Shown here piece by piece: positions 29,167 to 45,306 of a DNA stretch of 64,000 bases. The position numbers were made by a program, and so were the translations under genes. Position 1 is the stretch's first letter. Every line of letters begins with the position of its first letter. The stretch is from a virus, in the IMG/VR virus record IMGVR_UViG_3300036760_001167, positions 1 through 64,000 of that record; one strand, 5' to 3'. Below the pieces are notes generated by a model. That model did no database searches and was not told where the DNA came from. It worked only from the letters and a program-made list of their open reading frames with translations.

Positions 29167-30945
29167 TTACTTCCCGTCGTTCGGGGAGTTCTGGTGCACC
29201 GCCTCGTTCGCTGCCCAGTTCATCACGAACGTCGTGCGGGTCGCCGCGATCTGCGGGGCGCGCGCGTCGATCAGGACCTGGAACACCGCCGCGGCGTCCG
29301 CGCCCTCCTCGCCGAGCTGGGTGTCGGTCACGTCGTTGATCGACTTCGCGACGCCGTCGGCGTTGGCCCGCAGGTAGTTCGCGGTGCGCTCCTGGTCCCA
29401 CGCGCCCTTGACGCGCTCGGCCGCGTGCTCGCCGAAGTGGGTCGTCGCCTGCACCGCCACGCCGAACAGGTCGTCCGCGAGCTCCTTGTCCCAGCGCAGC
29501 CGGTCGAAGCCCTTGCCGCCCAGCACCGAGTTCCGCTGCCGCCTGAACGTCTTCTGCAGCGCCTCGAGGTGGCGGGCCGTGTACGTGTCGCGCCCCTCCT
29601 TCAGGAACTCGACCTCCGCCGCGTCCGCGGCCTTCGCGCCGTCCGGCCCGAGCGCCTTAGGCACATTCTGAGGCGTCGCGGGCGTCGCGGTCGGCGTGAC
29701 CGGGGAGGGCTGCCCGCCGAGGACGACGTTCGCGGGGACGATGAGCTCGTCGTACTCGGGCTTGTCGATCCGCGGCCTGTTGAACTCCGCGCGGACCTCG
29801 TTCCTCGTCAGGTACGGGCCGCCGCCCGCCTGCACCGCGATCTTGGAGCGGTCCTCGAACGAGCCCTTGAGCTTGTCCTCGATGTTGAACTCCAGGTACT
29901 GCCGGCCCTGCGCGTCGAACGCCTCGAACTCCGGGAGGAGCTGGAGCGCGAGCTCCTGCTCGAGGCGGTCGAGGAGCGGCTGCATCGTGTCCTGGTAGAG
30001 CTGCTTGTGGGACTCCTGGACGTTCGCGTACGTGCCGTGGTCGAGGATGCCGATCATCGGCGGCGGGATGTGGTACGCGCTCGCGACCTCCTCGCGGAGG
30101 AGCTTGCGCGACTGGATGAACTGGCTCTCCTCGGCCGAGAACTGGGCGTCGACCCAGTGCATGCCGTCCTCGAGCATCGCGACGCGGCCGGTGTTCTCCG
30201 CGCCCGTGTGCCTGCCCTCGAAGTCCTCGCGCCAGCGGGCGCGGGCGACGTCGTCCCACTCCGGCGCCTCGACCGGGCGCTCGACCACGCCGCCCTTGCG
30301 CGCGAAGTTCCGCCAGAACCAGCGGCGCGCCACCTGCGCCTCGAACTCCTCCATCAGCAGCGAGCGCAGCGTCTCGAGCGGGCTGAGGCCCTCGCCGCCG
30401 AGCGGGTCGTAGCCCGGGAACAGAATGAACTCGTCGGGCCGGACCATCTCGCCGGTGGCCATCCGGTACGCGCGGAGCTGGCCCGTGGCGGGGTCCCAGT
30501 CCGGGAGCAGCGACAGCGGCGACACGCGCGCGACGCCGACCATCCTGGAGCCGGGGCCGGCCGCGCGGAGCTTGCGCCAGTAGGCGCGGTTGTAGATCCC
30601 GATGTCCGCGACGGTGCCCTCCCAGAGCCGGTAGGGCGTGAGGCCGGGGTTCGGCTTGCGGAGGATGACGGAGGCGGGGTGCTCGTCGAGGTGGACGCGG
30701 TCGGTCGCGCTCACGCGCTCGTACAGCTTGATCGTGAGCTGCCCCACGTTCCTAGCCAGGAAGTCCACCACGGTGCGGACGTTCGGCTGGTGGCGGTAGA
30801 TCTCGGCGTAGCTGCCCCAGGCGCCGTACGACCTCATCACCGAGGAGATGTCGGGCGAGAACGAGACCACGGGCAGCCCGTCCACGACAATGCTCTTCCC
30901 CGCGCGCCGCTTGCGGCGCTCGGCCATGCGCGAACGGACGCCCAT
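29167..30945 (-). CDS. Portal protein (HK97 family) fused to the N-terminal half of MuF
   Basis: GLSPLE, LEDGM, SQFIQSR, AYHIPPPMIG, TRNEVR; the tail ends ARAPQIAATRTT...N (MuF helix). Confidence 0.92.
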   Translation of the reverse strand: MGVRSRMAERRKRRAGKSIVVDGLPVVSFSPDISSVMRSYGAWGSYAEIYRHQPNVRTVVDFLARNVGQLTIKLYERVSATDRVHLDEHPASVILRKPNPGLTPYRLWEGTVADIGIYNRAYWRKLRAAGPGSRMVGVARVSPLSLLPDWDPATGQLRAYRMATGEMVRPDEFILFPGYDPLGGEGLSPLETLRSLLMEEFEAQVARRWFWRNFARKGGVVERPVEAPEWDDVARARWREDFEGRHTGAENTGRVAMLEDGMHWVDAQFSAEESQFIQSRKLLREEVASAYHIPPPMIGILDHGTYANVQESHKQLYQDTMQPLLDRLEQELALQLLPEFEAFDAQGRQYLEFNIEDKLKGSFEDRSKIAVQAGGGPYLTRNEVRAEFNRPRIDKPEYDELIVPANVVLGGQPSPVTPTATPATPQNVPKALGPDGAKAADAAEVEFLKEGRDTYTARHLEALQKTFRRQRNSVLGGKGFDRLRWDKELADDLFGVAVQATTHFGEHAAERVKGAWDQERTANYLRANADGVAKSINDVTDTQLGEEGADAAAVFQVLIDARAPQIAATRTTFVMNWAANEAVHQNSPNDGK

Positions 30946-30976
30946 CTGTCTCCTTGGCAGTGCGCTAGTTCTAGCA

Positions 30977-30996
30977 CCCTCATCTTACACCGCGGC
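30977..30996 (-). promoter_or_regulatory. Putative late promoter upstream of the portal gene
   Basis: CCCTCATCTTACACCGCGGC, identical to 26593-26612. Confidence 0.65.
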
Positions 30997-31007
30997 CAGA
31001 CCGGCCC

Positions 31008-31316
31008 TTAGTCCGAGCCCGAGTCCGGGGTGGCGGGCACGGCGCCGGCCCAGCCGCGGTAGCGGTGCCCGCGCTCGGAGGCGGTCAGGCCGCCCCGGAT
31101 GCCGTAGCTCGGGGCGCCGCCGGCGCCGTCGTGGGCCGAGCGGGCCAGGCACTCCTCGCGGATCTGGCACGCGCCGCAGAGCTCGAGCGCCTCGAGGATC
31201 CGGAGCGGGTCCGGAAGCCGGCCGTCGTCGGCCGCGTTCTCCACCTCGAAGAAGCCCTCCGGGTCGGGGGCGTCGACGCACTCCGCGAGCTCTGCCCACC
31301 AGACCCTCTCGAGCAC
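31008..31316 (-). CDS. WhiB-family transcription factor
   Basis: W...AEC...FF...C-x2-C-x5-C...GIRGGLT-x2-ER. Confidence 0.88.
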   Translation of the reverse strand: MLERVWWAELAECVDAPDPEGFFEVENAADDGRLPDPLRILEALELCGACQIREECLARSAHDGAGGAPSYGIRGGLTASERGHRYRGWAGAVPATPDSGSD

Positions 31317-31323
31317 GCCGCGG

Positions 31324-31662
31324 CTACTCGTCGGTCTCGGTGAGCCACTCGACCAGGGCCGGGTTCTCGCGGAGCGCCGCGAGGAGGAAGGCGTCGATCG
31401 CGTTGATGAACTGCTCCTCCTCCTTGGCCGGCATCTTGAGGCCCGCGCGTTCGACGCAGTGGTGCATCAGCTCGTGGACTACGACCGCGCGCTGCCCGTT
31501 CCTGGTCTGGCCCTTCGCGACGCGGATCACGTTGCCGCCGTAGTCCCCGCCGATCTCGTAGCCGACCGCGAACTGCCCGATGCTCCTGAGCCACCGGATC
31601 CTGACCACCTGGCCGTCGACGTGGATCCTGTCCGGCCGCGTCTCCTTCGAGCTCCCGTTCAT
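31324..31662 (-). CDS. Small HExxH metallopeptidase-like protein
   Basis: VVVHELMHH followed by a downstream EE. Confidence 0.6.
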   Translation of the reverse strand: MNGSSKETRPDRIHVDGQVVRIRWLRSIGQFAVGYEIGGDYGGNVIRVAKGQTRNGQRAVVVHELMHHCVERAGLKMPAKEEEQFINAIDAFLLAALRENPALVEWLTETDE

Positions 31663-32510
31663 GCGTACTGTCCCGGCCTCTCCTCATCGTCGGCCGAGCT
31701 CGCCCGCCCGGCGTTCATCGCCTTGAGGAGCCGCAGCGTCTCGTCGTAGTCCGAGCCGATCACCTGCGTGGAGACCAGCAGCTCCTTCAGGTGGGCGAGC
31801 GACATCCCCTCCGTGTCCTTGACCATCCGGTCGACGTCGACGCGCACGCCCTCCGGGACGAGCGACCGCAAGTACTCGCCGCGCGCCGGCGCGGTCGGGT
31901 GCCCGATCTTGAAGCGCTTGTCGAAGCGGCTCGGCCGGTTCGCGATGCGCGGCGCCAGCACCTCGATGTAGTTGGTCGTCGCGAGGAAGACCACCTTCGG
32001 GTACTTCTCGACACCGTCCAGCAGGTTGAGCACCGCGGACTCATTCTCGTTGCGGCCCGCCAGGATCGCGTCGAGGTCCTCCATCAGCACGACGACGCGC
32101 GCCTCCGGCTGGATCGCGCGGATCTGCCGCAGCGCGATGTGCATGAGGTCCGGGCCGGGCCAGGTGATGACGAACCCGCCCGCCGCGATCACGTCCTGCG
32201 CGACGAGGGAGAGCGTGCTGGTCTTGCCGGAGCCGGGCGGGCCGTAGAGCAGGATCCCGCGCTTGTGCGTCATGCCGAACTTCTCGTACAGCTCGCCGCG
32301 CTCCCAGAACTGCTGGATCTCCGTCACCACCGCGTCGCCCGCGGTGCCGGGCAGCCGGAGCAGCTTGTCCGTGCCCATCTCGGCCCTGGTGAAGAAGAGC
32401 GTGCCGTTGGTGACCTGCACGTCGTAGAGGCCGGCGGGCATGACGTCGACCGTGTCGCTGACCGCGTAGTACATGCCGTTCGCGAAGCCCCACTGCGAGA
32501 CCAGCGGCAC
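31659..32510 (-). CDS. AAA+ ATPase
   Basis: KRGILLYGPPGSGKT (Walker A), VLMEDLD (Walker B), LNLLDG, ATTN, RPSRFD; GTG start after GGGAGG. Confidence 0.92.
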   Translation of the reverse strand: MPLVSQWGFANGMYYAVSDTVDVMPAGLYDVQVTNGTLFFTRAEMGTDKLLRLPGTAGDAVVTEIQQFWERGELYEKFGMTHKRGILLYGPPGSGKTSTLSLVAQDVIAAGGFVITWPGPDLMHIALRQIRAIQPEARVVVLMEDLDAILAGRNENESAVLNLLDGVEKYPKVVFLATTNYIEVLAPRIANRPSRFDKRFKIGHPTAPARGEYLRSLVPEGVRVDVDRMVKDTEGMSLAHLKELLVSTQVIGSDYDETLRLLKAMNAGRASSADDEERPGQYA

Positions 32511-32648
32511 GTCCCTCCCCTTCCTTGCCCGCTCCGTCACGTTGGTGACGCGGGGAACCCACCCCGCGCCGCGGCCGCTCCCACGACTCCTCGACACCGG
32601 CCGCCTTGAACCGTGCCGGTCCGTGGCAGCCACGCGGCCTTCCCTGCG

Positions 32649-32721
32649 TCCCCGGAGAAGGACTCGAACCCTCGGCCGTCGCGTTAGGACCGCGCCGCTC
32701 TTTCCTCTGAGCTACCCGGGG
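32649..32721 (-). tRNA. tRNA-Arg (CCU)
   Basis: Manual cloverleaf: CCCCGGG-TA-GCTC AGAGGAAA GAGC-G-GCGCG GTCCTAA CGCGA-CGGCC-GAGGG TTCGAGT CCTTC-TCCGGGG-A; CCA not encoded. Confidence 0.88.
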
Positions 32722-32727
32722 CTGAGC

Positions 32728-32753
32728 GGGAGGGCCGCCCTCGCGGCCCTCCC
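32728..32753 (-). terminator. Hairpin between the surface protein gene and the tRNA
   Basis: GGGAGGGCCGC-CCTC-GCGGCCCTCCC, an 11-bp stem. Confidence 0.55.
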
Positions 32754-32782
32754 GTCCTGCTTGGCTCCGATACCTTACCTCG

Positions 32783-33802
32783 TTACCTGCCTCCCCGCGT
32801 CACCGACGCGATGGACCGCTTCCGCGTGAGCGCGAGCGCGCCCAGGCCGAGCAGCGTCAGGAGCCCCATGCCGATCGCGGGCCGCGTGACGTTCGAGCCC
32901 GTCATCGCGAGGTCGCCGCCGGACGGCGGGCCACCCGCGAAGGTCGGGATCGGAGGCGCCGGCGTCCAGGTGGACTGCCAGCAGGGGAACTGGTCCGCCG
33001 GGCACGCCTTGGGCGGCGGCGTCGGCGAAGGGGTCTGGCAGCCGGCGTTGTCCACCGTGAGCGTCCGCACGTCGCCGCCGTTGAACGCGGCCGTGACCAC
33101 GGTCCCGTTCGCGAGCTGGCCGAGGTCCACGTCCGTCGGGTTGACGGAGATGGTCACGTCGGTGAAGACGCCGTCGACGCTGTAGTACGCGTTCCCGGTG
33201 CCCTCGAACCTGATGAACGTGTCCGTGCAGCTCGAGAAGATGAACGCCTCGGGCGTCGCGGGCGGTGGCGGCGGGGTCTGCGTGCCGATCGGCACGCACT
33301 GCCCGTCGTTGTTGAGCTCGTACCCCTCCGGGACCGTCGCCTGGTCGCCCTCGATGTTCGGGCAGACGTCGACGGGCGGGGGCGTGGTCGTCAGCGGCAC
33401 GCAGTCGCCGTTGTCGTCGATCACGTCGCCCTCCGGGACCGTCGCCTGGTCGCCCTCGATGTTCGGGCAGACGTCGGTCGGCGTGTCGCCGGACGGGCAG
33501 TCGCTCGCGGACGGGCTCTCCTGGCCGACGTCGAGGGCCAGCACGAAGCTCCGGCCCTGCGCGTCGTTGAAGTACAAGCCCACCACGACCGGGTCCTCGC
33601 CGATCGCGTTGAAGTCCACGTCGATCGGGTTCTGGCCGGTCTGCAGCGTCTCGTTCACGCCGGGCGTCCCGACGTACTTGCAGACGAACGCCTTGTGCGG
33701 CGCGGCCGTCGCGTTCGCGGCCATGATGTTCGCCCCGATCGGCAGGAGCACCACGGCCGTCACGGCAAGCGCCGCGAGCAGCTTGTTCCTTGTCCTCTTC
33801 AT
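32783..33802 (-). CDS. Sortase-anchored (LAXTG) cell-surface protein
   Basis: Signal peptide MKRTRNKLLAALAVTAVVLL; two DVCPNIEGDQATVPEG repeats; Pro/Thr linkers; C-terminal LAMTG, hydrophobic helix and RKR. Confidence 0.85.
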   Translation of the reverse strand: MKRTRNKLLAALAVTAVVLLPIGANIMAANATAAPHKAFVCKYVGTPGVNETLQTGQNPIDVDFNAIGEDPVVVGLYFNDAQGRSFVLALDVGQESPSASDCPSGDTPTDVCPNIEGDQATVPEGDVIDDNGDCVPLTTTPPPVDVCPNIEGDQATVPEGYELNNDGQCVPIGTQTPPPPPATPEAFIFSSCTDTFIRFEGTGNAYYSVDGVFTDVTISVNPTDVDLGQLANGTVVTAAFNGGDVRTLTVDNAGCQTPSPTPPPKACPADQFPCWQSTWTPAPPIPTFAGGPPSGGDLAMTGSNVTRPAIGMGLLTLLGLGALALTRKRSIASVTRGGR

Positions 33803-33848
33803 CTCCGTCTCCTCTCGCGCAGGCTTGTGACCTGCCTCCATCCGCATC

Positions 33849-34088
33849 TTACCTGGATGCGGCCGCCTTGTACACCCCCACCCGCTCTGCCACTGCGGCG
33901 AAGCCGGCGTGGATCGCGCTGGCCGCGCAGGCCCACGCCTCGGCGGCGCAGCTCTCGCCGTGGAACTCGAAGCGGGCCTCGTGCGGGCGGATGCCCGCGG
34001 CGAGGTCGCCCTTGTCCCGCACCGTCACGACGAAGTAGTCCACGCCTCCATCGTAGTGCCTCGTCGCCGCCTCCCTCGTCGCCCTCAT
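33849..34088 (-). CDS. Small hypothetical protein (MRATREAAT...)
   Basis: ATGA overlap with the tadG-like stop. Confidence 0.45.
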   Translation of the reverse strand: MRATREAATRHYDGGVDYFVVTVRDKGDLAAGIRPHEARFEFHGESCAAEAWACAASAIHAGFAAVAERVGVYKAAASR

Positions 34089-34780
34089 GCCGACAGCCAG
34101 ACGTGCGGGCTCGCGTCGTGCGGGCAGTCGACGGCCGGGTCGATGAAGTAGCTCTGGTTTGACTGCGGCACCGACGCGATCACGAAGGAGTCCTGCGCGT
34201 CGTTGAAACCGGTCGTCCCGTTCCACGGGAGGCCGCTGTGCCAGTCCTTGAGGTCGGAGCTGTTCACGCTCCTCCAGCCGCTCGCTGACACGCTGAGCCT
34301 CTCGGGGTTCCCGACGTACTTGCAGACGTAGACCTGCTTGTCGGCCCCGTTCACGGGGTGGAGCACCGCGGGCGTCAGCCCGTTCAGCCGCCACGAGCCG
34401 GTCGCCGCCACGGTGACGGTCCTCGAGTTGGAGAGGCCCAGGACCGGCGCGAAGTACAGCGGCTGCGTCGACGTGAACGTGACCGAGACGCTGCCGGTCA
34501 CGTTGTTGCACTGGCTGAGGTTCATCGTCCAGGTGAAGCCCGCGGCATGCGGCGCGTTCACCGGGAAGATCGCGAGCGCGTCCGCCTGCGCGGCCGGCGC
34601 GCCCAGCCCCTTCGAGCACTTGAGCGCGGCCGCCAGCGCGGCCGCGTCGGCGCCGTTGACCATCTCTCGCCGCCTGTACAGCATCCCGCCGACGTCGACC
34701 GTCAGCGCGACCGCGCCCATCATCACGACCAGCACGAGCGCCGTGACGACCGCGACGACGCCCTCCTCGCGGCGCCTCAT
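34085..34780 (-). CDS. TadG-like Flp pilus minor pilin
   Basis: MRRREEG|VVAVVTALVLVVMMGAVALTVDVG...NGADAAALAAA, the Tad N-terminal motif. Confidence 0.88.
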   Translation of the reverse strand: MRRREEGVVAVVTALVLVVMMGAVALTVDVGGMLYRRREMVNGADAAALAAALKCSKGLGAPAAQADALAIFPVNAPHAAGFTWTMNLSQCNNVTGSVSVTFTSTQPLYFAPVLGLSNSRTVTVAATGSWRLNGLTPAVLHPVNGADKQVYVCKYVGNPERLSVSASGWRSVNSSDLKDWHSGLPWNGTTGFNDAQDSFVIASVPQSNQSYFIDPAVDCPHDASPHVWLSA

Positions 34781-35169
34781 CGCTCGCACCTGAAGGTCGC
34801 CGCGATGTTCGTCGCGATGTGGAAGTCCGGGAGCAGCGGGATCGAGATCACGATGCCCTGGCCCCCGTTCAGCAGGCCCGTGTTGAAGCTCGCGGTCGAG
34901 TCGACGCCGGCGCCGTCGCAGGAGGTCACGAGCACCTGGGCGGCGGGCACGAGCCCTGCCGAGGTGTCCGAGACCTTCTGCTGGACGGTCGCGACGCAGG
35001 TTCCGCCGGGACAAACCGCGCCGGTGCGGGCGCCCTCGCGCACCGCGCCGCGGATGGTCTGGAGCTGCATGAAGCCCAGCCCGAACCCGATGACGCCGAA
35101 GACCAGCATGAACAGCAGCGGCGCGACGAGCGCGAACTCGACCGCCGCCGCCCCGCGCTCGCGCCTCAC
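34777..35169 (-). CDS. tadE: TadE-like minor pilin
   Basis: RRERG|AAAVEFALVAPLLFMLVFGVIGFG...AVREGAR. Confidence 0.9.
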   Translation of the reverse strand: MRRERGAAAVEFALVAPLLFMLVFGVIGFGLGFMQLQTIRGAVREGARTGAVCPGGTCVATVQQKVSDTSAGLVPAAQVLVTSCDGAGVDSTASFNTGLLNGGQGIVISIPLLPDFHIATNIAATFRCER

Positions 35170-35261
35170 TTCGAGACCGCCCGCGCGAAGAGCGAGAACG
35201 CTCCCCACACCATCACGTTCGCGGCCACTCCCACGAGCAGCCACGTCTTGAAGTTCTTCAT
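35166..35261 (-). CDS. 31-aa membrane peptide
   Basis: MKNFKTWLLVGVAANVMVWGAFSLFARAVSK; ATGA/GTGA overlaps with rtcB and tadE. Confidence 0.55.
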   Translation of the reverse strand: MKNFKTWLLVGVAANVMVWGAFSLFARAVSK

Positions 35262-36502
35262 CGCGTGCCTCCTGTCTTCCGGCGCCTGTCGTCGACGCCC
35301 TTGTAGTTCGCGATCGCGCGGAGCCTGTAGTCGACCCGCACGAGGTCGGCCTGGTCGGCCATTACCGTCTCGACGTCCTTGTACGCCTGCGGGCTCTCGT
35401 CCAGCAGGCTCGCCGCGTCGCCGTCCTGCCAGGCGACGCCCTCCATCCGCGCCGCGAAGTCCTCGAGCGCGACCTCCTTCCTGGCCCTGCCGCGCGACAT
35501 CACGCGGCCCGCGCCGTGCGAACAGCTCTCGTAGGACTCGGGGTTCCCGAGCCCGCTCACGACGAAGCTCGCCTGGCCCATGGCGCCGGGGATCAGGCCG
35601 CGGCTCGAGACGTGCGCGGCGATCGCGCCCTTGCGCGTGACGTACGCGTGCCGCCCGAGCTCCGCGACGCCCTCGAAGCTCACGTAGTTGTGGTGGCAGT
35701 TCACCTCGTCCTCGATCAGGAGGCGCTTCCCGGCGACCTCCTCGAGGGCGGCGTGGGCGCGGCGCAGGATCTGCCGACGGTTCTCGAGCGCGTACCGCTG
35801 CGCCCAGGAGACGTCCGCCACGTAGGCCGCGAACTCGCTGCCGCCGCGGTCGAGCCAGGCCAGGTCGAGCTCCGGCACCGTCTCGCCGGCCGCCGCGCGC
35901 TCCGCGCTGGGGTGCGGCTTGAGCGGCACGTCGGCGCCGTGGAGCAGCGCTGCGGCGTCGCCGTAGACCCGCGCCAGCTTGTTCCCCGCGCCGCGCGAGC
36001 CGGAGTGCAGCAGGATCCACACCTGCCCGAGCTCGTCGACGCTGAGCTCCACGAAGTGGTTCCCCGCGCCGAGCGTGCCGATCTGCCGGCCCGCGAGCGG
36101 GACGTCGTCGACCCTCGACGGCGCCGGGTCGCAGGCGATGAACTCCGCCGCCTCGTCGGACATCGCCCTGTCCCAGTGCCCCAGCCCCGCCGGGACGAGC
36201 CGCCCCACAGCCTCCACCCAGGCCGCGGCGTCGCCGTCGCCCAAGTCGCCCAAGTCCAGCGCCAGCCTGCGCGCGGCCATGCCGCAGCCGATGTCCACGC
36301 CGACCGCCATCGGGATGACCGCGTCCTCGGTCACGAGGACGCTGCCGATCGTGGCGCCGTGGCCGAGGTGCGCGTCCGGCATCAGCGCGACGGGCAGGCT
36401 CAGGATCGCGAGCTCCGCGGTCCGCTCCGCGGCCTCGCGGGCGTTGTCATCCAGGATGCTGGCCCAGCTCCGGACCCTGCCGTTCGCGAACGTCTCACGC
36501 AT
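35258..36502 (-). CDS. rtcB: RtcB RNA ligase
   Basis: MPDAHLG, GVDIGCG, GTLGAGNHFVE, HSGSRG, HHNY, RKGA, SHGAGR, DESPQAYK. Confidence 0.96.
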   Translation of the reverse strand: MRETFANGRVRSWASILDDNAREAAERTAELAILSLPVALMPDAHLGHGATIGSVLVTEDAVIPMAVGVDIGCGMAARRLALDLGDLGDGDAAAWVEAVGRLVPAGLGHWDRAMSDEAAEFIACDPAPSRVDDVPLAGRQIGTLGAGNHFVELSVDELGQVWILLHSGSRGAGNKLARVYGDAAALLHGADVPLKPHPSAERAAAGETVPELDLAWLDRGGSEFAAYVADVSWAQRYALENRRQILRRAHAALEEVAGKRLLIEDEVNCHHNYVSFEGVAELGRHAYVTRKGAIAAHVSSRGLIPGAMGQASFVVSGLGNPESYESCSHGAGRVMSRGRARKEVALEDFAARMEGVAWQDGDAASLLDESPQAYKDVETVMADQADLVRVDYRLRAIANYKGVDDRRRKTGGTR

Positions 36503-39500
36503 CTACTCCTCCGTCCCTCAGGATTCCCTCGGCGTCGCTCAGCACGCCGCGCAGGGCGGCGACCAGCACCTGCGAGGTCTCATGCTCGGGGTGCAGCCTG
36601 AGCATGTGGGTCGTCCACGCCTCGATGGCGAGGCGCTCCGCGTCCTCGTGGTCTTGCGGGTGCCAGGTCTCGCACACCTCGCAGCGCAGCTCCAGCACCT
36701 CGTCATCCACGGCCCAGCCTCCCCTCGCTCCAGAACTCGAGCTCGCCGCACGTCGCGGGCGGGCTCGCGTCCATCGCGAGCACCAGGCCCGGCACGATCT
36801 CGCGCTCGTACTGCTCCAGCTCGACCTTGTCCGCCGCGTCTTCGGGCATCGTCATCTCACTGCTCCTCCCGCTCGCGGCGCTCCAGCGCCAGGTACCACT
36901 CCTCGTCCAGGTCCGACTCGCGCGCCACCTCGCGGGCGAGCAGCGCGTCGACGCGGTCCTGCGTCGCCTCCATCAGCGCGTCGCCGGCGCGGGCGCCGAG
37001 CTCGAGCGGCGGGAGGAAGACCTCGAGCCTGCAGAAGCCGCGGCCGAGCGGGTCGACGTCGAAGCACCAGGCGAGCACCCTCGTCCCTCATGAGAAGCCG
37101 CCGACCCGGCCCGCTGCGTCCGCGAGCTCGAACGCGACCCAGGCAAGCGCCGCCACGACGGCGAGCACGCAGAAGACCCGCGCCCAGATCATCGTGGGAC
37201 CGCCAGGATCCGGGCCTCGGCCTCGTCGTACTCCTCGCGGTGCCGCTCCGGCAACGAGGAGAACTCGACCGTGTAGCCGTGCCGCTGGCCAGGGACCAGG
37301 CGGTCCGCGAGGGTCTCGCCCTCGGCCTCGGCCGCGTCGCGCAGCCTGGCCCTCAGCGCGTCGCCGAACTTTCCCTGGTTCCTCATGACGCCTCCTCCGT
37401 GTCCGCGATCGCCCGGCCGGTCGCCCTGACCCAGTCCGCGATCTGCTCGATGGTGCCCGCGTCCCACTCCTCGCCGCTCAGGTACTCGGCCATCTGGTCG
37501 AGCGCCCTGCCGTCCGGCAGCGGCGCCCACGGGTTGCCCGTGACCGCCAGCGCGCGGCGCGCGGCGTCGTCGCTCGGGTAGAGCGCGCACAGGTCGCAGC
37601 GGTACGGCTGCTCGACCTCGCCCTGGTCGCCCGGCCGCACCGTGAAGATCCCGGCGTTGGGCTGGGTGCCGCAGGCGTCGCACGCGCTCGGCTGGCTCAT
37701 CCGAGCCTCGTCCCGAGCACGCTGCCCTCCGCCTTGATGACCTCGGCAACGTTGTCCCGCTTCGCGTCCGCGCGCTCGTGGCGGCGCTCCTCGCGCATCC
37801 ACGCGGGCCGCGGCTCGCGGCGCTCCTGGCGCGGTGCCAGCTCGTCCTCGAGGCGCTCCATCTCCGTCGCGTTCACTCTGTGCCTCCTTGGTCGCTCTCG
37901 TGCCTGTGGCCGGACGGTGTTCCGTCCGACTCCGGGACGCAGTCGCCGCGGGCGCAGCCCGCGAAGACCGCGCGCCTCGCCTCGCAGTGGCCGCAGCCCT
38001 CGCGGTGCGACGCCTGGTGGTGCGCGTCGTCCCTGGCCGCGGCCGCCACCTCGCGCAGGACCGGCGCCTCCGATCGGCTCAGCCTGGCCTGGTCGGCCTC
38101 CGCGCTCTCGCCGGTCAGCTGGCGCGCGGCGGCGGCCTCCTCGACCTCCTCGACCGTCTCCTCGTCGACGTGCCCGGCCTCGACCAGCTCGCGCAGCGTC
38201 TCGGCGCGGCCGACCACCCAGTCGAGCTCGGCCATCGTCAGGCAGCCGGTATTCTGCAGCCCCGTCGCGCGCCACTCGGCGTCGACCCTGGCGCGGATGC
38301 TCTCGACGTCCATCATCAGAACCATCCTCCTTCGCGGATCCTCGTCCTCATGTCCTCGATGCTCAGGCGGGCGGCCATGAGCTTGTCGGCCGCGGTCGGG
38401 CGGTGCGCCGCGTGGTCGCGGGTCGCCTCGGCCCTCCGCCAGAACCAGCCGGAGTCCTCGGACCAGCGGCCGAGCTTGCTGCAGAGCCACTCCGCGAGCT
38501 CGCAGTCCGTCAGTCGCGCGGCGTTCGCGGCCTTGACGACCGCAGCGTCGACGCCCGCCTGGGCGCTGCGCATCAGGTGCCGCTCGCCGCCGTACCCGTA
38601 GTCGCTCTGCCGGTCGATGTCGGCGGCCGTGAAGTCGCGGCGGCCGATCGCGTCCGGGTTGTCGCAGGGCGCTCCCACGCCGTGCGTGCAGGTCTCAGGC
38701 ATGGGGCGCCTCCAGTCCGCGCAGCGCGTTGGCGAAGCGCAGCCGGGCGTCGGCGTCGTCGGCGCTCAGGCCCTCGGCGATGAGCGCGACCGCGTCGCGG
38801 CCCTCGAACTCGACGACGGACCAGCCGGCGTCAGTGACCTCGGTGCCGTACCAGCGCGCCCTCATGACTGGGCCTCGCGGGCCAGGTGCCGCTCGACGTC
38901 TAGCTCGGAGAACTTGTAGCGCTTGCTGTCGTCGAGGCACAGGGCGGAGATGCCGTACTTGGTCGAGCGCGGGTTCACGCCCACGATCTTGAAGCGCCGC
39001 ACGCCCACGGTGAACTCGGCGCCGAAGTGCTCGGGCCGCAGGCCGAAGGACGGCGCGTACCGCTCGAACTCGAGCTTGGCCGCGTCGGCCTGCTCGAAGA
39101 CCACCTTGTTGGGGCGGAAGGAGCTGCCGCCGCCGACCTTGACCGTCAAGCCGTGCGCCTGGGCGATCGCTGCGAGCGCTTGCTGCGCCTCTGTCGCGAG
39201 CGTCCTGCAGAGTGCCTTGTCCATCCCGTGCCTTGTCCATCTCGTCCATCCCTTCTGTCGAGCGCGGTCCGTCCGCCTCGCGGTTCCGCGCGTTCTTCGC
39301 CGCGCGGAGCCGTCAAGCGTCAGGCGTAGATGCTGGCGGAGAAGCGGCGGGCAACCTCGGCGTTGATGGCGTCGACTGCCTCTTGGTCGACGTACGCGCC
39401 GCCCAGGTTCTCGTGCTCCCAGACGACGGTGCTGCGGACGTCGGCGAGCTTGTCGCTGTTCATGGCCTTGAAGTTCCGGAGTCTTCCTGTGGGTCCGCGT

Positions 39501-39511
39501 CCTGAGTTCAT
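36495..39511 (-). other. Cluster of about 10-12 small hypothetical genes, several Cys/His-rich
   Basis: Chained short ORFs with stop/start overlaps, e.g. 36495..36710, 38316..38702, 38862..39224, 39320..39511; no recognised family. Confidence 0.6.
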
Positions 39512-39555
39512 CCTGCGTCTCCTTCGTTCTCGAGCGGCCGTTCCGCTCTCTAGCT

Positions 39556-39653
39556 CTATTATCGGCAGCGCGCCCGCGGTGAGTACCGGCCGAAAGGGCC
39601 AGAACCGCCCTCCCCGGCAGCCTAGGTCGAAGGTCTGGTATGCGCCATACTAG
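39556..39653 (-). promoter_or_regulatory. Conserved ~97-bp promoter element, copy 3
   Basis: CTAGT...AGACCT..CCTAGG...GGCCC..TCGG.CGGT...GCTGCCGATAAT. Confidence 0.75.
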
Positions 39654-40309
39654 GCCGGGTTCCCGCTGCCCAGGGCCTCGGCGCGGTGCTTCCGGCACAG
39701 GGGCACCTTGCCCGCCCGCTCCGGCTCGATGTCGAGGCCCGCCCGCTCCGCCGCCTCGGGCTCCGCGGTGCCCGCGTAGTAGTGGCCGCAGCCCTTGACG
39801 CAGCAGACCCGGATCGTCCGGCCCTTGCCGCCTCCGACGCGGCTGCCGCTGCCCGCCTGCGCCGCCGATCGCAGCGCCTCCGCCGGGAACGTCGTCGCCG
39901 CGCCCGTCGTCTTGCCGCTGCGCGCCTCGCTCTCGACGCGGTGGACGCGGGCGCCCATGCCGCAGTAGTCGCGCGGCCACGCGTACAGGTTGCTCACGCC
40001 GATCCCCTCGCCCTTCAGGTGCGGCCTGCCGTCCGCCTCCCAGTGGTGGAACTCCCAGCGCTCGCCGGGGTCGGACCAGGGCAGGTCGACGATCAGGACG
40101 TCGCCGGGCCGGAAGTCCGGGCGCTCGAACCCGAGCAGCTCCGGCGCGTGCTCCGCCGCGCAGTGGAGCGGGCAGAAGCCGCACGGGTCGAGCCGCTCCT
40201 CGCGGCAGTCGGCGTGGAAGCAGCGCGGGTAGTGCTCGCGGCAGAAGCCGCGCGGGCTGATCGCCCCGGCCTTGCACTCCTCCTCGACGCACCGCGGCTT
40301 GGCCGTCAT
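39650..40309 (-). CDS. Cys/His-rich zinc-finger-like hypothetical protein
   Basis: C-x4-C...C-x2-H repeats at both termini. Confidence 0.55.
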   Translation of the reverse strand: MTAKPRCVEEECKAGAISPRGFCREHYPRCFHADCREERLDPCGFCPLHCAAEHAPELLGFERPDFRPGDVLIVDLPWSDPGERWEFHHWEADGRPHLKGEGIGVSNLYAWPRDYCGMGARVHRVESEARSGKTTGAATTFPAEALRSAAQAGSGSRVGGGKGRTIRVCCVKGCGHYYAGTAEPEAAERAGLDIEPERAGKVPLCRKHRAEALGSGNPA

Positions 40310-40502
40310 GCCTGGCCGCCGATCGCCCGGACCTGGTCGGCGCGGAGCTCGCGCCACTCGCCGCGCTCGTCGATGTGGCGCCAGAACGCGATCGACCGCG
40401 CGGCGGCGGCGCGCGACGGCGCGGCGACGACGTAGTCGGCCTGCACGATCCAGGGCTTCGCCTCGAGCCGCTCCGGCGCCGTGTGGAGCCAGTGCCAGGT
40501 CC

Positions 40503-41051
40503 TCACAGCTCGGCCCTCGCGAAGCGCCAGCCGAAGGAGGCGGCGAGGCTTCCCTCCATCTCGTCGCGGTAGGCGTGGAGGGGCGTGCCCTCCAGCGCGG
40601 TCCTCTTCGCGAGGATCGCGTCCACGGTCCGGCCCAGGATGACCGCGAGCTCGGCGTCGGTGACGCCGCGGTCGGGGTCGCAGGCCAGCAGCGCGTCCTC
40701 GTGCGACCACTCCTCGCCCCGGCGGTCGGCGGTGTCGATGGACGTGGCGTTGAGCCGCTTCTGGGCGATCGCCTTCTTGGCCCTCTGCTCCTCGGGCGTC
40801 CGCATCCGGCCGTCCTTGCGGGGCACCGTCGCGAGCAGGTCGAGCACGTCGTCGACGCAGACCCAGTGCCCGCCCGCGTTGACCTCGGCGCGCACGACCC
40901 CAGCGCTCACCCACTTGTGGACGGTGCTCTCGCACACGGGCAGCGCGCGGGCCGCGCCCGCGGGGTGGAGCCAGCGCGTGCCGTCGGCCTTCCTGCGCTT
41001 GACGTCGGCGGCCCTCACTCGGGCACCTCCCGCCAGCAGGACTTGCAGCAC
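40503..41051 (-). CDS. Helix-turn-helix DNA-binding protein (excisionase/MerR-like)
   Basis: WLHPAGAARALPVCESTVHKWV..G and a second HTH-like segment DAELAVILGRTVDAI. Confidence 0.65.
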   Translation of the reverse strand: MLQVLLAGGARVRAADVKRRKADGTRWLHPAGAARALPVCESTVHKWVSAGVVRAEVNAGGHWVCVDDVLDLLATVPRKDGRMRTPEEQRAKKAIAQKRLNATSIDTADRRGEEWSHEDALLACDPDRGVTDAELAVILGRTVDAILAKRTALEGTPLHAYRDEMEGSLAASFGWRFARAEL

Positions 41052-41917
41052 AGGACGTCATCGTGGTAGGTCGTGGCGGCGCCGCAGCAGGGGCTGAGGC
41101 ACTCGCAGCGCGAGCCGTTGGGGTAGGTGCCGAGGCAGACCTCGCAGGTGAGCAGGCCGCCGCGGACGTCGTCGTCCTCGCCGGAGCTCAGCCGCCGCGC
41201 CCACTCGCGCTCGGTCAGGGGCGCGTCGCCGAAGTGGCCCCGCACGCCGTGGGCGTGCTCGCCCTGGATCCCGGACCCGCACCAGCACGCGCTCATGCCG
41301 CGCTCCTGAGTGCTAGCGCCTCGTCGAGGGGCACGTCGACGCCGAGCTCCCACGTGACCTCGCAGAACATCAGGTCGAAGACGGCCGCGGCCTCGTCGTT
41401 GCCGACGGGCCGGCCGATCGCCGCGAGCGCGTCGAGCCGCTCGACGGCCTTGGCCTCGGGCATGCGCCGCATCATGGGGTCGCCGCCTTGCAGCCGTCGC
41501 ACGTGGGCTCGCGGTCGGTAGGCTCGCACAGAGACGCGAACGCCCACTCGCCGCAGCGCCAGTTGAGGAGCTGCTGGGGAGGAGGGCAGCCCGCGGGCGC
41601 CTTCATGCCGGTGGACTCGACGGCGTGGATGACGCCGTCGAGGTGGCGGGCGTTCTTGAGGCGATCGCTCATGAGTTGTCCACCCTGTGCTCGGCCTTGC
41701 AGGCGGGACACGCGTCGCCGTCGCCGCAGTCGTCGCAGCCGCGGCGGTCGTCGCGCTCGTCGTCGCGCTCGTACCAGGGGAGCTCGTAGCGGCAGCCGAC
41801 GACGTGCGTCTCGCCGCTCAGCACGTCCCGGCCGCACAGTGGGCAGGTGGGCACTGGCTCGGCCGCGGGCAGGTAGAGCTCGCTGCGGCCGGTGAAGGTC
41901 CTGATTGCTCCGAACAT
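41015..41917 (-). other. Small Cys-rich hypothetical genes
   Basis: About four short overlapping ORFs with CxxC motifs. Confidence 0.5.
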
Positions 41918-41955
41918 CTTGCGCTCCTTCTCTCGGGGTCCGCTTGCTGTCTACT

Positions 41956-42053
41956 TCATTATCGGCAGCGGCGGGCCCCGGGAGCACCGCCCGATCGGGC
42001 CGTTTCCGGCCCTGGGGCGGCCTAGGCGGAAGGTCTAGTGTGGCGCGCACTAG
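41956..42053 (-). promoter_or_regulatory. Conserved ~97-bp promoter element, copy 2
   Basis: Same blocks and spacing as copies 1 and 3. Confidence 0.75.
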
Positions 42054-42389
42054 TGGTCGTGCGCCCGCCGGTCAGGACCTGGGTGATGACGCAGCGCGCG
42101 CGGCCCTGCACCCACGTGACCTCGGCGCGGAGCACCAGCACGCCTCGCCGCCTCGACGGCACCTCGTAGGTCATGCCGGCACCGCCACGTAGGCCGCGTC
42201 CTCGAGCGGGATGCCGCGGGCGTCCATGAACCTGGCGCCGTAGCAGCCCCACACGCCCAGCATCTGGACGCAGTAGATCGCCTCGTGGCGCAGGCCCGCG
42301 AGCCTGCCTGCGGCGGAGCGGATGCTCGCCGGGACTCTCTCCTCCATCATCTTGACCTCCTTCTCTCGGGCCCACCTTACACCGTGTCG

Positions 42390-43425
42390 GCCGAGAAGGG
42401 AACGGGCGCCTCCCACCGCTGCCGCCGCTCACGCTCGGGATCGTCGGGCCGGCTCGACACCGAGCCACCCATCTCCGGCTCGCTGCGCGATCGCCCGCGC
42501 CTCGTCCGGTCACTCCGTCCACGCATGCTGCTCCGGCCTCACCCTTGCGGGCGGTGGTGCTGCGGCGCCCCGCTGGCGGCGGGCGGGTTGCGGGATCGGC
42601 CCGCCAAGTTGTGCCCGCTGCCAGCGGGGCGCCGCAGGTTCCTAGCGGCGCCTTACTCCGCCAGCCGGGCGGCGGCGGGCGACGTGTCCTCCGGCCCGCC
42701 AGCTCCCCGAAGGTCGCGATTACGCGGGGCGGTCGACTTCGCTGCCACACCGCCCGGATTCGGGCGGAGGTTCTGGCGGGACCGAGGGACGGCGGGCGGG
42801 TGCTACCGTCCGCAGCGGCGTCGGCTCTTGCGACTCTCAGGGTTCGTCTGGGCATCTAGGATCTCGCGTTCCCGCGTCGCCGCGGGGCAGCACGTCCACA
42901 GCGTGCGCCGCTTCACCAAGAGGGGAAACTATTCCGCCCAACCTGGGTCGGGAGTCTATCCGAGGCTTTACGACGACCTCGGTCCCGTTTCGCCGGACTT
43001 CACTTGACCGGCTTCGAGAGCGGCGGAGGTTCCCGGCGTACGGAGAACATCTCCCGCCGAACTACCTCGCGCTCGCTCTCGGAGCCGTTCAGGCTCCGTG
43101 CGGCCGATCGCTTGACCGGCTTCGAGAGCGGACCCGTGTGCCCACGTCCCTGGGGCTGCGCTCTCGCGCTCCCTGGGTTCCGGCTGGCCCAGCGCCTCTC
43201 GGCGCGCTGGCGGTTCGGCCTGGCCTTGCACCTCTGGTCTCGCTCTCGGAGCCGTTCAGGCTCCGTGTCTTGGCGCTCGGCGGGGAGTACGATGCCCCGG
43301 AACTCAGGGGGAATCCGGTCAGGCCCTGAGGGCCGCCGCGTACCTCCTGGAACCGCGGGCCCACTTCGCCCGCCGAGCCGGATCTGCTTCTGCCGCTCTG
43401 GCTTCCACGCTCCGGTCTGTTCGCC
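42390..43425 (-). ncRNA. Candidate ~1 kb structured non-coding RNA
   Basis: No convincing ORF; promoter element at the 5' side; many stems with GNRA/UUCG loops; duplicated junction module with compensatory changes. Confidence 0.65.
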
Positions 43426-43433
43426 TTACATCA

Positions 43434-43531
43434 TCATTATCGGCAGCCGTGCCCCCGCAGCGTACCGGCCGAAGGGCCCGAGATCGCCTGGGCGTCGGCC
43501 TAGGCCGGAGGTCTAGTGTGGCGCGTACTAG
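43434..43531 (-). promoter_or_regulatory. Conserved ~97-bp promoter element, copy 1
   Basis: Begins at the terL TAG stop and ends GCTGCCGATAAT. Confidence 0.75.
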
Positions 43532-45306
43532 ATCCTGATGCGCTGGCCCGGCTTCTTGGGCGCGGGCTTCTTCGCGCGGCGCCGCTCGTCGGCCTCGCGG
43601 CGGAGCCGGCGCGCGTAGGACTCCTGCGGCTCCGCGGGCTTCGGCTTCCGCTCGGGCCGCGGCGGCGCGGGCTGCTCCGCGGGCTCCGGCTGCGCGTCCT
43701 CGCCGGGCTTCGGGTCCGTCTCGCGCGCGTACGCGCTCCTCTTCTTGGGCTTCGCGCCCGCGGCGATCGCGTCGCCGCGCGCCTCCCACGACAGCGCGCC
43801 GGCCGCGGCGGCGTCGATCTTGTTCGGGGACATCGGCGCCTCCTTCGAGATCGTCCAGAGCTGCCGGCCCTCGTCGTCGTACGAGGCGATCGGCTTCCTC
43901 CGCGTGTTCTCGACGTGCCGCGCCATCACCTCGTCGCCGTCGTGCGTGACGTCGCCGGCCTTGATCGACGCGGCGTACTTGCGGACCATGATCGCGGCCT
44001 GCTTCGGCCGGGACATCAGCCACGCGACCACGACCTTGTCGCCGTACTTCCCCTGCCACCTGTCGAGCAGCGCCTCGATGTTCGCGTACTGCGAGCCGGG
44101 GTCGACGTAGACGCGCCAGACCGACCAGGTCTCCATCGCCTCGGAGAGCGTGCCGTCGACCTCGTCGAAGTCGTGCTCGTAGTCGTCGTTCGCGGTCTCC
44201 GGCTTGGTCCAGATCCCGAGCGGCCACTGCCAGCCCGAGTCGACCTCGGTGGCGACCATCGCGAGCGCGTCCTCGTAGCGGGCGCCGTCGACGCCGACCG
44301 TGACCAGCGAGCCGGGCTTCGGCTGCTCCCGCTCCCTCTTGAGCTTGCGCCAGCGCTCCCCGTCGAACGCGCGGTCCTCGCCGGGCACCACGCGGTTGAG
44401 GAAGTAGCGCTCCGCCTGCGCGAGCTCGCCGCGCTTGAGGAGGTCGTCGATCTCGGACGAGATCCGCTCGGTGTCGACCCACCAGCTCGAGCCGTACAGG
44501 TTCCTGAGGACGCGCATGCGCTCGCGCTTGTTCTTGATGGAGCCGCGGCCGCCCTTGCCCATCATCCTGAAGACGCCGACGCCGGACTCGTGGGTCGCCT
44601 GCGCGACGCTCTGCTCGCTCGGGTCCCACGCGTTGCCGGTCTCGAGGAAGCGGCCGCCCATGCCGGCCAGGTTGCGGCGCTGCGTGTCGGCGAGCTTGCG
44701 GCCGCCGTTGCGCTTGGTCCAGTCGTGCGCCTCGTCCTCGACCGCGAACGTGATCCGCTGCCCGAGCCGGCTCCGGGCGCTCGCGGTGACGGGCTCGATC
44801 TTGCCGCCGTTCGGGAGGTTGATCCTGGTCTCCCCGGTGTCCGGGATCTCCGCCTTGAGGTTGCCGAGCTCGATCATCGGCACCAGCGATCGCCAGACGT
44901 TGGCCGTCTGGTCCTCCGAGACCGCCGTGACCTGGATCCACGGCGTCGCCCACGGCCGGCCGACCGGCTCGCCGTCCGCGTCCCACCCGTCGAACAGCAC
45001 GGGGCCGAAGGACTCGACGATGATCATGGCCGCGGCGAAGGGCCCCTTGCCGAGCTTCTGCGGCTCGACGATCTGGCCGCCGCGGTTGTAGCGGAACGCG
45101 CCGCTCGGCTTGGTCAGGTCCTTGACCGCGTCCGGCTTCAGCTCGTAGAAGTTGAGGACGAACTCCTGCTGCCAGTCCGACAGCAGGAACGGCTCGCCCG
45201 CGAACTCGCCGTCGGGGATGACGCACAGGTCCTGGATCGCGTCGAGCACTGCCCACCCGAGCGTCGGCAGCTCGCCCTCCGTGCGCGGCCCGCGCCAGCC
45301 CGTCAC
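43528..45306 (-). CDS. terL: Terminase large subunit
   Basis: LSDWQ, PQKLGKGP (Walker A), AVSEDQT, AVEDEAH (Walker B), GVDGA..ED and SPNKIDAA (nuclease). Confidence 0.95.
   Translation of the reverse strand: MTGWRGPRTEGELPTLGWAVLDAIQDLCVIPDGEFAGEPFLLSDWQQEFVLNFYELKPDAVKDLTKPSGAFRYNRGGQIVEPQKLGKGPFAAAMIIVESFGPVLFDGWDADGEPVGRPWATPWIQVTAVSEDQTANVWRSLVPMIELGNLKAEIPDTGETRINLPNGGKIEPVTASARSRLGQRITFAVEDEAHDWTKRNGGRKLADTQRRNLAGMGGRFLETGNAWDPSEQSVAQATHESGVGVFRMMGKGGRGSIKNKRERMRVLRNLYGSSWWVDTERISSEIDDLLKRGELAQAERYFLNRVVPGEDRAFDGERWRKLKREREQPKPGSLVTVGVDGARYEDALAMVATEVDSGWQWPLGIWTKPETANDDYEHDFDEVDGTLSEAMETWSVWRVYVDPGSQYANIEALLDRWQGKYGDKVVVAWLMSRPKQAAIMVRKYAASIKAGDVTHDGDEVMARHVENTRRKPIASYDDEGRQLWTISKEAPMSPNKIDAAAAGALSWEARGDAIAAGAKPKKRSAYARETDPKPGEDAQPEPAEQPAPPRPERKPKPAEPQESYARRLRREADERRRAKKPAPKKPGQRIRI

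Follow-up and report, generated by a model that had tools for sequence, protein, structure and literature searches.

What might a phage gain from a stretch of about 1 kb that carries no gene, lies directly after its terminase, and holds two short repeats, A and B, that alternate twice around unrelated inserts? We address this for a window comprising the first 64 kb of the 106,510-bp IMG/VR virus record IMGVR_UViG_3300036760_001167, which has terminal repeats and is rated complete. A preliminary description of the locus had proposed a duplicated RNA module with a constant scaffold and swappable arms. The reading we prefer, to which we assign a probability of about 0.4, is that A and B together make up a constant platform for recognition, carried on a non-coding RNA of the phage; one of its helices (P3) has a variable tip, and the platform acts on the fate of the transcript.

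Results

An untranslated gap between terL and a small ORF

The genome has a GC content of 72%, and nearly all of its genes are on the minus strand, including every gene near the gap, with third-position GC (GC3) of 0.9–1.0. Judged by TerL, the closest cultured relative is Streptomyces phage Kromp (43% identity), and because the remaining TerL matches are all actinobacteriophages and the phage carries a WhiB gene, its host is probably an actinobacterium. No TerL relative in IMG/VR or JGI exceeds 71% identity, and the nearest protein in a large protein collection reaches 72%. In the relatives at 65–71% identity (e.g., L003 and L004), terL is directly adjacent to the portal gene and the gap region is absent; in this phage, ~12.5 kb (30985–43527), gap included, has been added between the two genes. 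The added block also contains genes for WhiB, an AAA ATPase, tRNA-Arg(CCT), and the RNA ligase RtcB (Table 1). Elsewhere in the genome is a 19-gene tRNA array (95420–97556, minus strand), which together with tRNA-Arg and RtcB indicates that the phage invests heavily in supplying and repairing tRNA. The DUF3800-VI RNA motif has a weak match, below threshold, adjoining the tRNA-Arg gene (32723–32763, plus strand; 25 bits vs. a gathering score of 35, E = 0.19).

Few stretches of the genome other than tRNA arrays are non-coding, and the gap itself, with terL directly upstream and a 59-codon ORF on its other side, is the longest of them. GC3 periodicity is absent across 42600–43590 and stands at 0.95–1.0 in the flanking genes, and neither the spacing of repeat A (167 nt) nor the changes seen in a diverged relative, X3 (a net loss of 88 nt, and indels), are multiples of three. 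On these grounds, we take the stretch to be non-coding. Pfam and PHROG searches with the 59-aa ORF gave no match. This ORF is preceded by one of five minus-strand sites of a promoter-like motif, GGTGTAAG(A/G)T, that lie ahead of genes (window 26606, 30990, 42382, and 46495; genome 79653), among them the portal gene, the terS-side operon, and the small ORF at 42350. The small ORF thus probably has its own promoter, in which case the RNA upstream of it may be a separate transcript. The portal gene of L003 is preceded by a similar box, GTGGTAGGAT.

Table 1. Positions of the features discussed, in window coordinates
Feature	Position	Strand	Remarks
Terminase large subunit gene (terL)	43528..45306	-	phrog_19179 3e-79, phrog_9 2e-50; GC3 ~1.0 in frame
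Cassette, ~100 bp	43434..43540	-	hairpin plus promoter-like end GCTGCCGATAAT at 43447-43436; one of six genome copies
Predicted untranslated transcript	42406..43428	-	non-coding RNA or long leader; both ends predicted
5' domain	43273..43428	-	best-conserved block between this phage and X3; 3 substitutions/156 nt
UGACCGG	43315..43321	-	candidate 5' strand of closing helix, with CCGGUCA of B2
Repeat A2	43239..43267	-	hairpin A 43264-43248; P3 5' strand GAGAGCG 43247-43241; bulged A 43240
Insert 2	43132..43238	-	107 nt; branched, two C-GAGA-G tetraloop hairpins (minimum-energy folds)
Repeat B2	43108..43131	-	P3 3' strand CGCUCUC 43130-43124; GAA; GCCGGUC 43120-43114
GAUCGGC	43103..43109	-	may pair with B2 (local hairpin) or B1 (closing module 1)
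Repeat A1	43072..43100	-	29/29 identical to A2
Insert 1	43024..43071	-	48 nt; nearly perfect hairpin; sequence unrelated to insert 2
Repeat B1	43000..43023	-	23/24 identical to B2 (96%)
Terminator-like hairpin with U-rich tail	42915..42951	-	hairpin 42951-42934; read from sequence, putative function
Long hairpin	42560..42637	-	25-nt arms, 96% complementary; folding z ~ -3.2 on both strands
Small ORF, 59 aa	42171..42350	-	own GGTGTAAGGT promoter-like box 42384-42375 and GAAGGAGG ribosome-binding site
RtcB RNA ligase	35258-36502		in 12.5-kb added block; ~7 kb downstream of modules
tRNA-Arg(CCT)	32648-32721		in 12.5-kb added block
AAA ATPase	31659-32633		in 12.5-kb added block
WhiB	31008-31316		in 12.5-kb added block
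Portal gene	29167-30984		this phage

A promoter-like cassette at the head of the gap

Directly after the terL stop codon is one copy of a cassette that occurs six times in the genome, always on the minus strand. Three copies lie in the window (39558–39662, 41958–42062, and 43436–43540; 80% column identity in their alignment) and three beyond it (88993, 91700, and 94498). Each is made up of a CTAG-rich block, a small hairpin, and GCCGATAAT. After five of the six, a start codon follows within a few to ~50 nt, four of these with a clear ribosome-binding site, and the cassettes look like phage-specific terminator-plus-promoter units for accessory genes, with a putative promoter function. The copy at 43436 is the only one without a nearby ORF, and ~1.05 kb without start codon or coding signal comes after it. 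Since this copy is directly upstream of the gap and the other copies mostly stand before start codons, the gap is probably transcribed on the minus strand from about 43428. No match to sigma-70 region 2 was found in the phage genome, so the cassettes are promoter-like in a phage without a sigma-70-type factor. A scan of IMG/VR with the cassette pattern had no matches, and among public sequencing runs none listed as RNA holds the stretch.

We set the 3′ limit of the predicted transcript at 42406, the point where similarity to X3 stops. Within it, the terminator-like hairpin lies in the lowest-GC part of the gap (GC 0.64); a rule-based terminator scan did not call it. The long hairpin in the 3′ part of the gap is very stable and is also found, with indels, in X3; it may serve as a factor-independent terminator that lacks a U tract.

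Two tandem modules bounded by repeats A and B

On the minus strand, A and B alternate as A-insert-B twice, in tandem. Repeat A is as first described, 29 nt long and identical at every position in its two copies. The duplication of B is also real, but the repeat is 24 nt long rather than the 21 nt originally given. In blastn against the whole genome, the repeats score E = 8e-9 (A) and E = 2e-4 (B), and no further true copy of either was found in the 106,510 bp. A fifth copy of the 21-mer, with two mismatches, at 31070–31090 lies inside the WhiB gene and was taken as chance. The short motif GAGAGCG is not enriched in the genome (26 occurrences, where 7-mers of identical composition average 22).

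A relationship absent from the preliminary description is that A and B are inverted repeats: of the 21 positions in the A core, 18 match the reverse complement of B, and the figure rises to 20 on the plus strand if G-U pairs are included. Both modules have the same three A:B mismatches, all in the outer part of the repeat; the inner GAGAGCG/CGCUCUC is perfect, and copies of one type share the same A-vs.-B differences. At two sites where A departs from perfect complementarity to B by a transition, the hairpin formed by A alone (hairpin A) has a G-C pair in place of G-U. Because these changes strengthen hairpin A to the detriment of A:B pairing, they hint that it has been selected over a long A:B duplex.

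The two inserts had been claimed to differ and yet to fold, and their sequences and predicted folds agree with this. They have no significant similarity (local alignment p = 0.74 vs. shuffles), and both extend P3 in the modelled structures. For insert 2, the minus strand scores z = -3.2 and -2.4 in folding and the plus strand -1.2 and +0.5, so that only the minus strand is clearly structured. A 16-codon mini-ORF, MFSVRREPPPLSKPVK (43000–43050, minus strand), begins with an AUG in the apical loop of insert 1 and runs on through B1, where the one base by which B1 differs from B2 creates its UGA stop. It encodes a PPP stalling motif. Chance may well account for this ORF, and the module 1 region does not align in X3.

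Inverted repeats around unrelated interiors are also what a feature of the DNA would present. The four 21-bp copies might be the termini of a MITE- or Correia-like element that inserted twice, or sites for a DNA-binding protein, with RNA folding as a by-product. The units (~101 and ~160 bp) abut head to tail, their interiors are unrelated as in MITE families, and both strands fold. In Neisseria, the longer forms of Correia repeat enclosed elements are 153–157 bp, are bounded by inverted repeats, and give transcripts that form hairpins bound or cut by RNase III; there are 100–250 dispersed copies with related cores and mobile-element features, and a copy may separate a promoter from a gene (PMC2649163). 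The units described here are likewise short and bounded by inverted repeats, but they are two copies at one locus, and dispersed copies were found neither in the phage nor in IMG/VR or JGI metagenomes, four matches in GTDB being taken as chance. Moreover, the repeat is perfect in its inner part and least similar at its outer ends, the reverse of what transposon termini show. Neither unit is surrounded by a target-site duplication or flanking direct repeat, and no transposase lies nearby. The within-type identity of the A/B differences points to duplication of a whole A…B unit rather than to four independent sites, and all three inserts seen so far, including that of X3, extend a helix, which a DNA site does not need. 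We consider a DNA-level origin quite unlikely, and return to A and B as parts of an RNA.

Pairing potential and competing folds

All of the pairings first described are present as potential base pairs. Hairpin A (GGAGCC-UGAAC-GGCUCC, 6 bp) is present on the minus strand at 43264–43248 and 43097–43081, and abuts the 5′ strand of P3 without a linker. P3 pairs GAGAGCG of A (43247–43241 and 43080–43074) with CGCUCUC of B (43130–43124 and 43022–43016). Beyond the bulged A (43240 and 43073), the helix can continue as GACC/GGUC in one copy and as GCG/CGC, then GAGGU/ACCUC, in the other. For the closing helix proposed for each module, the strands UGACCGG (43321–43315) and GAUCGGC (43109–43103) exist, but their pairing is not unique. 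The UGACCGG pairing is used in the minimum-energy fold of a 346-nt context and not in other folds with different flanks. GAUCGGC also pairs locally with GCCGGUC of B2 over an AAGC loop, and GCCGG of B1 alternatively pairs with CCGGC at 42996–42992.

Thermodynamic folds switch among these options with the amount of flanking sequence, and the three-way junction is one among several near-isoenergetic, mutually exclusive folds. For module 1, a form with an extended A:B hairpin and the form with hairpin A have equal energy (-71.3 kcal/mol each), whereas module 2 and its variant in X3 prefer a form with three hairpins. The pair probability of hairpin A is 0.8–0.9 in A2 and only 0.4 in A1, because the extended A:B form competes with it there. 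In these models, the two modules may be able to switch conformation through competition between the A:B and GAUCGGC pairings and the others. The minus strand of 42990–43335 folds better than shuffled controls (z = -3.9), and both strands exceed controls; module 1 folds better on the plus strand (z = -5.5 vs. -4.3 on the minus strand).

The extended form raises the question of whether the modules are processing stalks, i.e., imperfect A:B duplexes of ~25 bp that host RNase III would cut, releasing or trimming the hairpins or setting transcript stability. The 18/21 complementarity of A and B, followed past the bulged A by 3–4 more pairs, amounts to more than two helical turns, and the extended form is the minimum-energy fold of module 1 in every context tried. 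As modelled, it would offer the stem of at least ~20 bp expected of an RNase III hairpin, in competition with hairpin A. The early RNAs of phages T7 (the R sites) and SP82 carry conserved RNase III processing hairpins, which lie between cistrons. By analogy, the modules resemble these in occurring in several copies with a conserved imperfect stem on one phage's transcripts, and ~25 bp with mismatches would suffice as substrate. Unlike them, the modules are in tandem inside an untranslated RNA, have unrelated upper parts, and include an extra self-pairing hairpin. The duplex has a competitor in this hairpin A, a perfect 6-bp palindrome favored by the A-vs.-B substitutions, and the three-hairpin preference of module 2 and the X3 variant does not fit a stalk. 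In addition, the phage encodes no RNase III, and the enzyme would have to be assumed for the host. For these reasons, we regard the stalk as an unlikely account, and a platform built of hairpin A and P3 as the better one.

A diverged relative replaces an insert and is predicted to keep the helix

Public contigs were aligned to the region, and differences were taken from the summary table. The same phage is seen in a second sediment study (X2). A single diverged relative, X3, is a 4188-nt contig from a soil metagenome in a third study. Within the 5′ domain, X3 differs by 3 substitutions in 156 nt (~2%), as against 8–14% in the flanks (8/95 in the cassette and 9/64 in the terminase tail; Fisher p = 0.004 and 1e-4, respectively, vs. 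the 5′ domain). A2 and B2 have no listed differences. Between them, X3 has 15 nt in place of the 103 nt at 43134–43236, and these 15 nt fold with GAC/GUC kept and UC/GA added, which gives a third version of P3 on the A/B base. The 15-mer has CCAGCCGGA in common with insert 2 (p = 0.03), and because of this it may be a truncation of insert 2. Further 3′, blocks 42406–42651 and 42885–42946 are kept with indels (the latter at ~87% identity), and 42652–42884 is replaced. At the position of module 1, ~150 nt do not align. An earlier interpretation that X3 has a single module was withdrawn, since these ~150 nt of contig are unaccounted for and a second module is possible there.

We conclude that pairing, on whose persistence in homologues the preliminary description had staked its model, appears to be retained in X3, with P3 preserved by 15 nt predicted to continue the helix. 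The idea of a constant scaffold with variable arms is likewise sustained in part: three insert variants that extend P3 in the models stand beside A and B with no listed differences, but a sponge, a guide, or a ribozyme, the roles suggested for it, found no support. A structured RNA whose cores are constrained and whose helix tips vary would be expected to give the pattern in X3, and a mosaic recombination block could mimic such uneven conservation. A and B are invariant among the copies compared and so carry no information on pairing, and one relative is too few for statistical covariation.

That recombination might explain more than the conservation, leaving the modules without function, is the claim of another alternative, in which they were left behind when related phages recombined unequally within a tolerant spacer, and look conserved through recency. 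Phage genomes are mosaic, the region is known from two genomes only, and the TerL relatives at 65–71% do not have it. Simple duplication, however, would copy the insert too, and here the inserts are unrelated between identical flanks; X3 also diverges less in this region than in the cassette and the terminase tail, and the structure signals of the region are above shuffled controls. We therefore think a functionless remnant improbable, and a conserved A/B platform the more fitting description.

Searches for known families and partners

Rfam 15 at the gathering threshold gave no match to the modules, the sole match in the window being a tRNA. When the limit was relaxed to E ≤ 10, 42000–44000 gave only spurious matches of miRNA/snoRNA type far below threshold, none on the modules, and 30900–43600 likewise gave nothing on the modules. 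There was no Rfam family match to ribozymes, riboswitches, CRISPR repeats, 6S/Ms1, Y RNA, pRNA, or GOLLD/ROOL. Distant-mode blastn of 42200–43600 against INPHARED phages had no match, and nothing similar to the gap was found by blastn or nhmmer in any of the loci retrieved for TerL relatives. Pattern searches of IMG/VR with the A 19-mer and a 5′-domain 28-mer, and of JGI metagenomes with the A 24-mer, returned no matches. The matches that other patterns did return were taken as chance: one in IMG/VR to A with a degenerate loop, inside a coding ORF and without a B partner; three in IMG/VR to a B 18-mer, in coding DNA; and four in GTDB genomes to a P3+B pattern, in unrelated MAGs, apparently coding and without hairpin A.

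Several known kinds of RNA were considered and set aside. Repeat A is 29 nt with a hairpin, as a CRISPR repeat may be, but its copies are 167 nt apart and paired with an inverted B, and it has no CRISPR-DR match. A retron or DGR-type RNA was rejected since no reverse transcriptase (RVT_1) match was found anywhere in the genome. Bacterial Y RNAs (YrlA/YrlB) of Rsr-RtcB operons combine a constant protein-binding stem with a variable module, are often in tandem, and are linked to RtcB. The modules share with them a constant stem joined to a variable module, the tandem arrangement, and an RtcB gene in the same genome, but RtcB is 7 kb away behind two more cassettes, and a Y RNA/Ro system was rejected because the complete phage genome has no TROVE (Ro60) match, with positive controls working, and there is no Rfam Y-RNA match.

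The RtcB gene ~7 kb downstream bears on one further proposal, in which the modules act as a guide-like RNA or as a self-cleaving ribozyme of a new kind, perhaps tied to the phage ligase; the identical A copies, 167 nt apart, could in principle bound an excisable unit. Against this, no known ribozyme class matched at E ≤ 10, no conserved unpaired core is identifiable, and the genome has no effector protein (reverse transcriptase or TROVE). A search for complementarity between the inserts and the phage genome, a check suggested in the preliminary description, gave only weak matches (E ≥ 0.03), none a convincing target. We hold a ribozyme or guide to be very improbable, and prefer sequence-specific recognition of A and B as the basis for the modules.

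Discussion

Under the reading we prefer, the two modules would be tandem copies of one RNA unit within an untranslated minus-strand transcript of ~0.9–1.0 kb that would start at the phage promoter cassette just after terL, its start and ends being those predicted above. Folded in vivo, element A would give the 6-bp hairpin, stacked on P3 and abutting its 5′ strand with no linker, and element B would give the 3′ strand of P3, the GAA linker, and the GCCGGUC strand that pairs with flanking sequence. The distal end of P3 would tolerate any hairpin, be it of 48 nt, 107 nt, or the 15 nt of X3, and would act as a neutral expansion site. The A/B platform would be recognized sequence-specifically by a hypothetical trans-acting factor, most likely an RNA-binding protein or nuclease of the host or phage, and would thereby set the fate of the transcript through processing, stability, or read-through into the accessory gene block, which the transcript would head.

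Read-through has a precedent in the put RNAs of phage HK022, which are cis-acting antiterminators with abutting, promoter-proximal stem-loops, two similar copies per phage lying in separate operons. The modelled modules would also place two abutting stem-loops near a promoter, with A2 ~160 nt after the predicted transcription start (a figure reckoned from the cassette position and the repeat coordinates). By analogy, such an arrangement would fit a transcript that needs to pass several hairpin-containing cassettes. Unlike put, the module copies are in tandem, and the likeness is one of architecture, with no sequence similarity established.

The ~1-kb transcript may be viewed more broadly as a new class of large structured phage RNA in large actinobacterial phages with 20 tRNAs and RtcB, in which an invariant three-helix platform displays interchangeable hairpins and either offers a host factor a multivalent decoy or scaffold, or self-assembles in the way of ROOL or GOLLD. 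GOLLD and ROOL are large, ornate, phage-associated RNAs (PMC12286853). The likeness is that of a large, highly structured candidate non-coding RNA in a phage with many tRNA genes; the differences are the lack of an Rfam match, another lineage and GC content, and an occurrence here in two genomes. We think this broader view doubtful.

The modules are a credible candidate for a new structured RNA that belongs to no known family and is present in two genomes; its modelled structure is plausible, and the comparison with X3 gives some evidence of constraint. Large structured phage non-coding RNAs are rare and mostly unexplained, and a promoter-driven RNA of 1 kb between the packaging genes and an RNA-repair/accessory block could reveal a new phage use of RNA, whether in control of its own transcript or in engagement of a host factor. 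One scaffold with three different inserts suggests a naturally tolerant insertion point. We give the candidate modest weight for now, as it is known from the sequence of two genomes.

Sequence at the edges of the gap

The heptamer TGTAAGG occurs only twice in the genome, at 43424–43430 and 42375–42381, i.e., at both edges of the gap. The idea that the whole 1-kb gap is a mobile insertion that duplicated TGTAAGG was weakened by the finding that the downstream copy fits the GGTGTAAG(A/G)T motif and that X3 similarity ends before it. After the second TGTAAGG, CCCGAGAGAAGGAG..CAAGATG closely resembles the leader of the cassette-2 gene, and from the sequence it looks as if ~1.05 kb had been inserted into a standard short leader.
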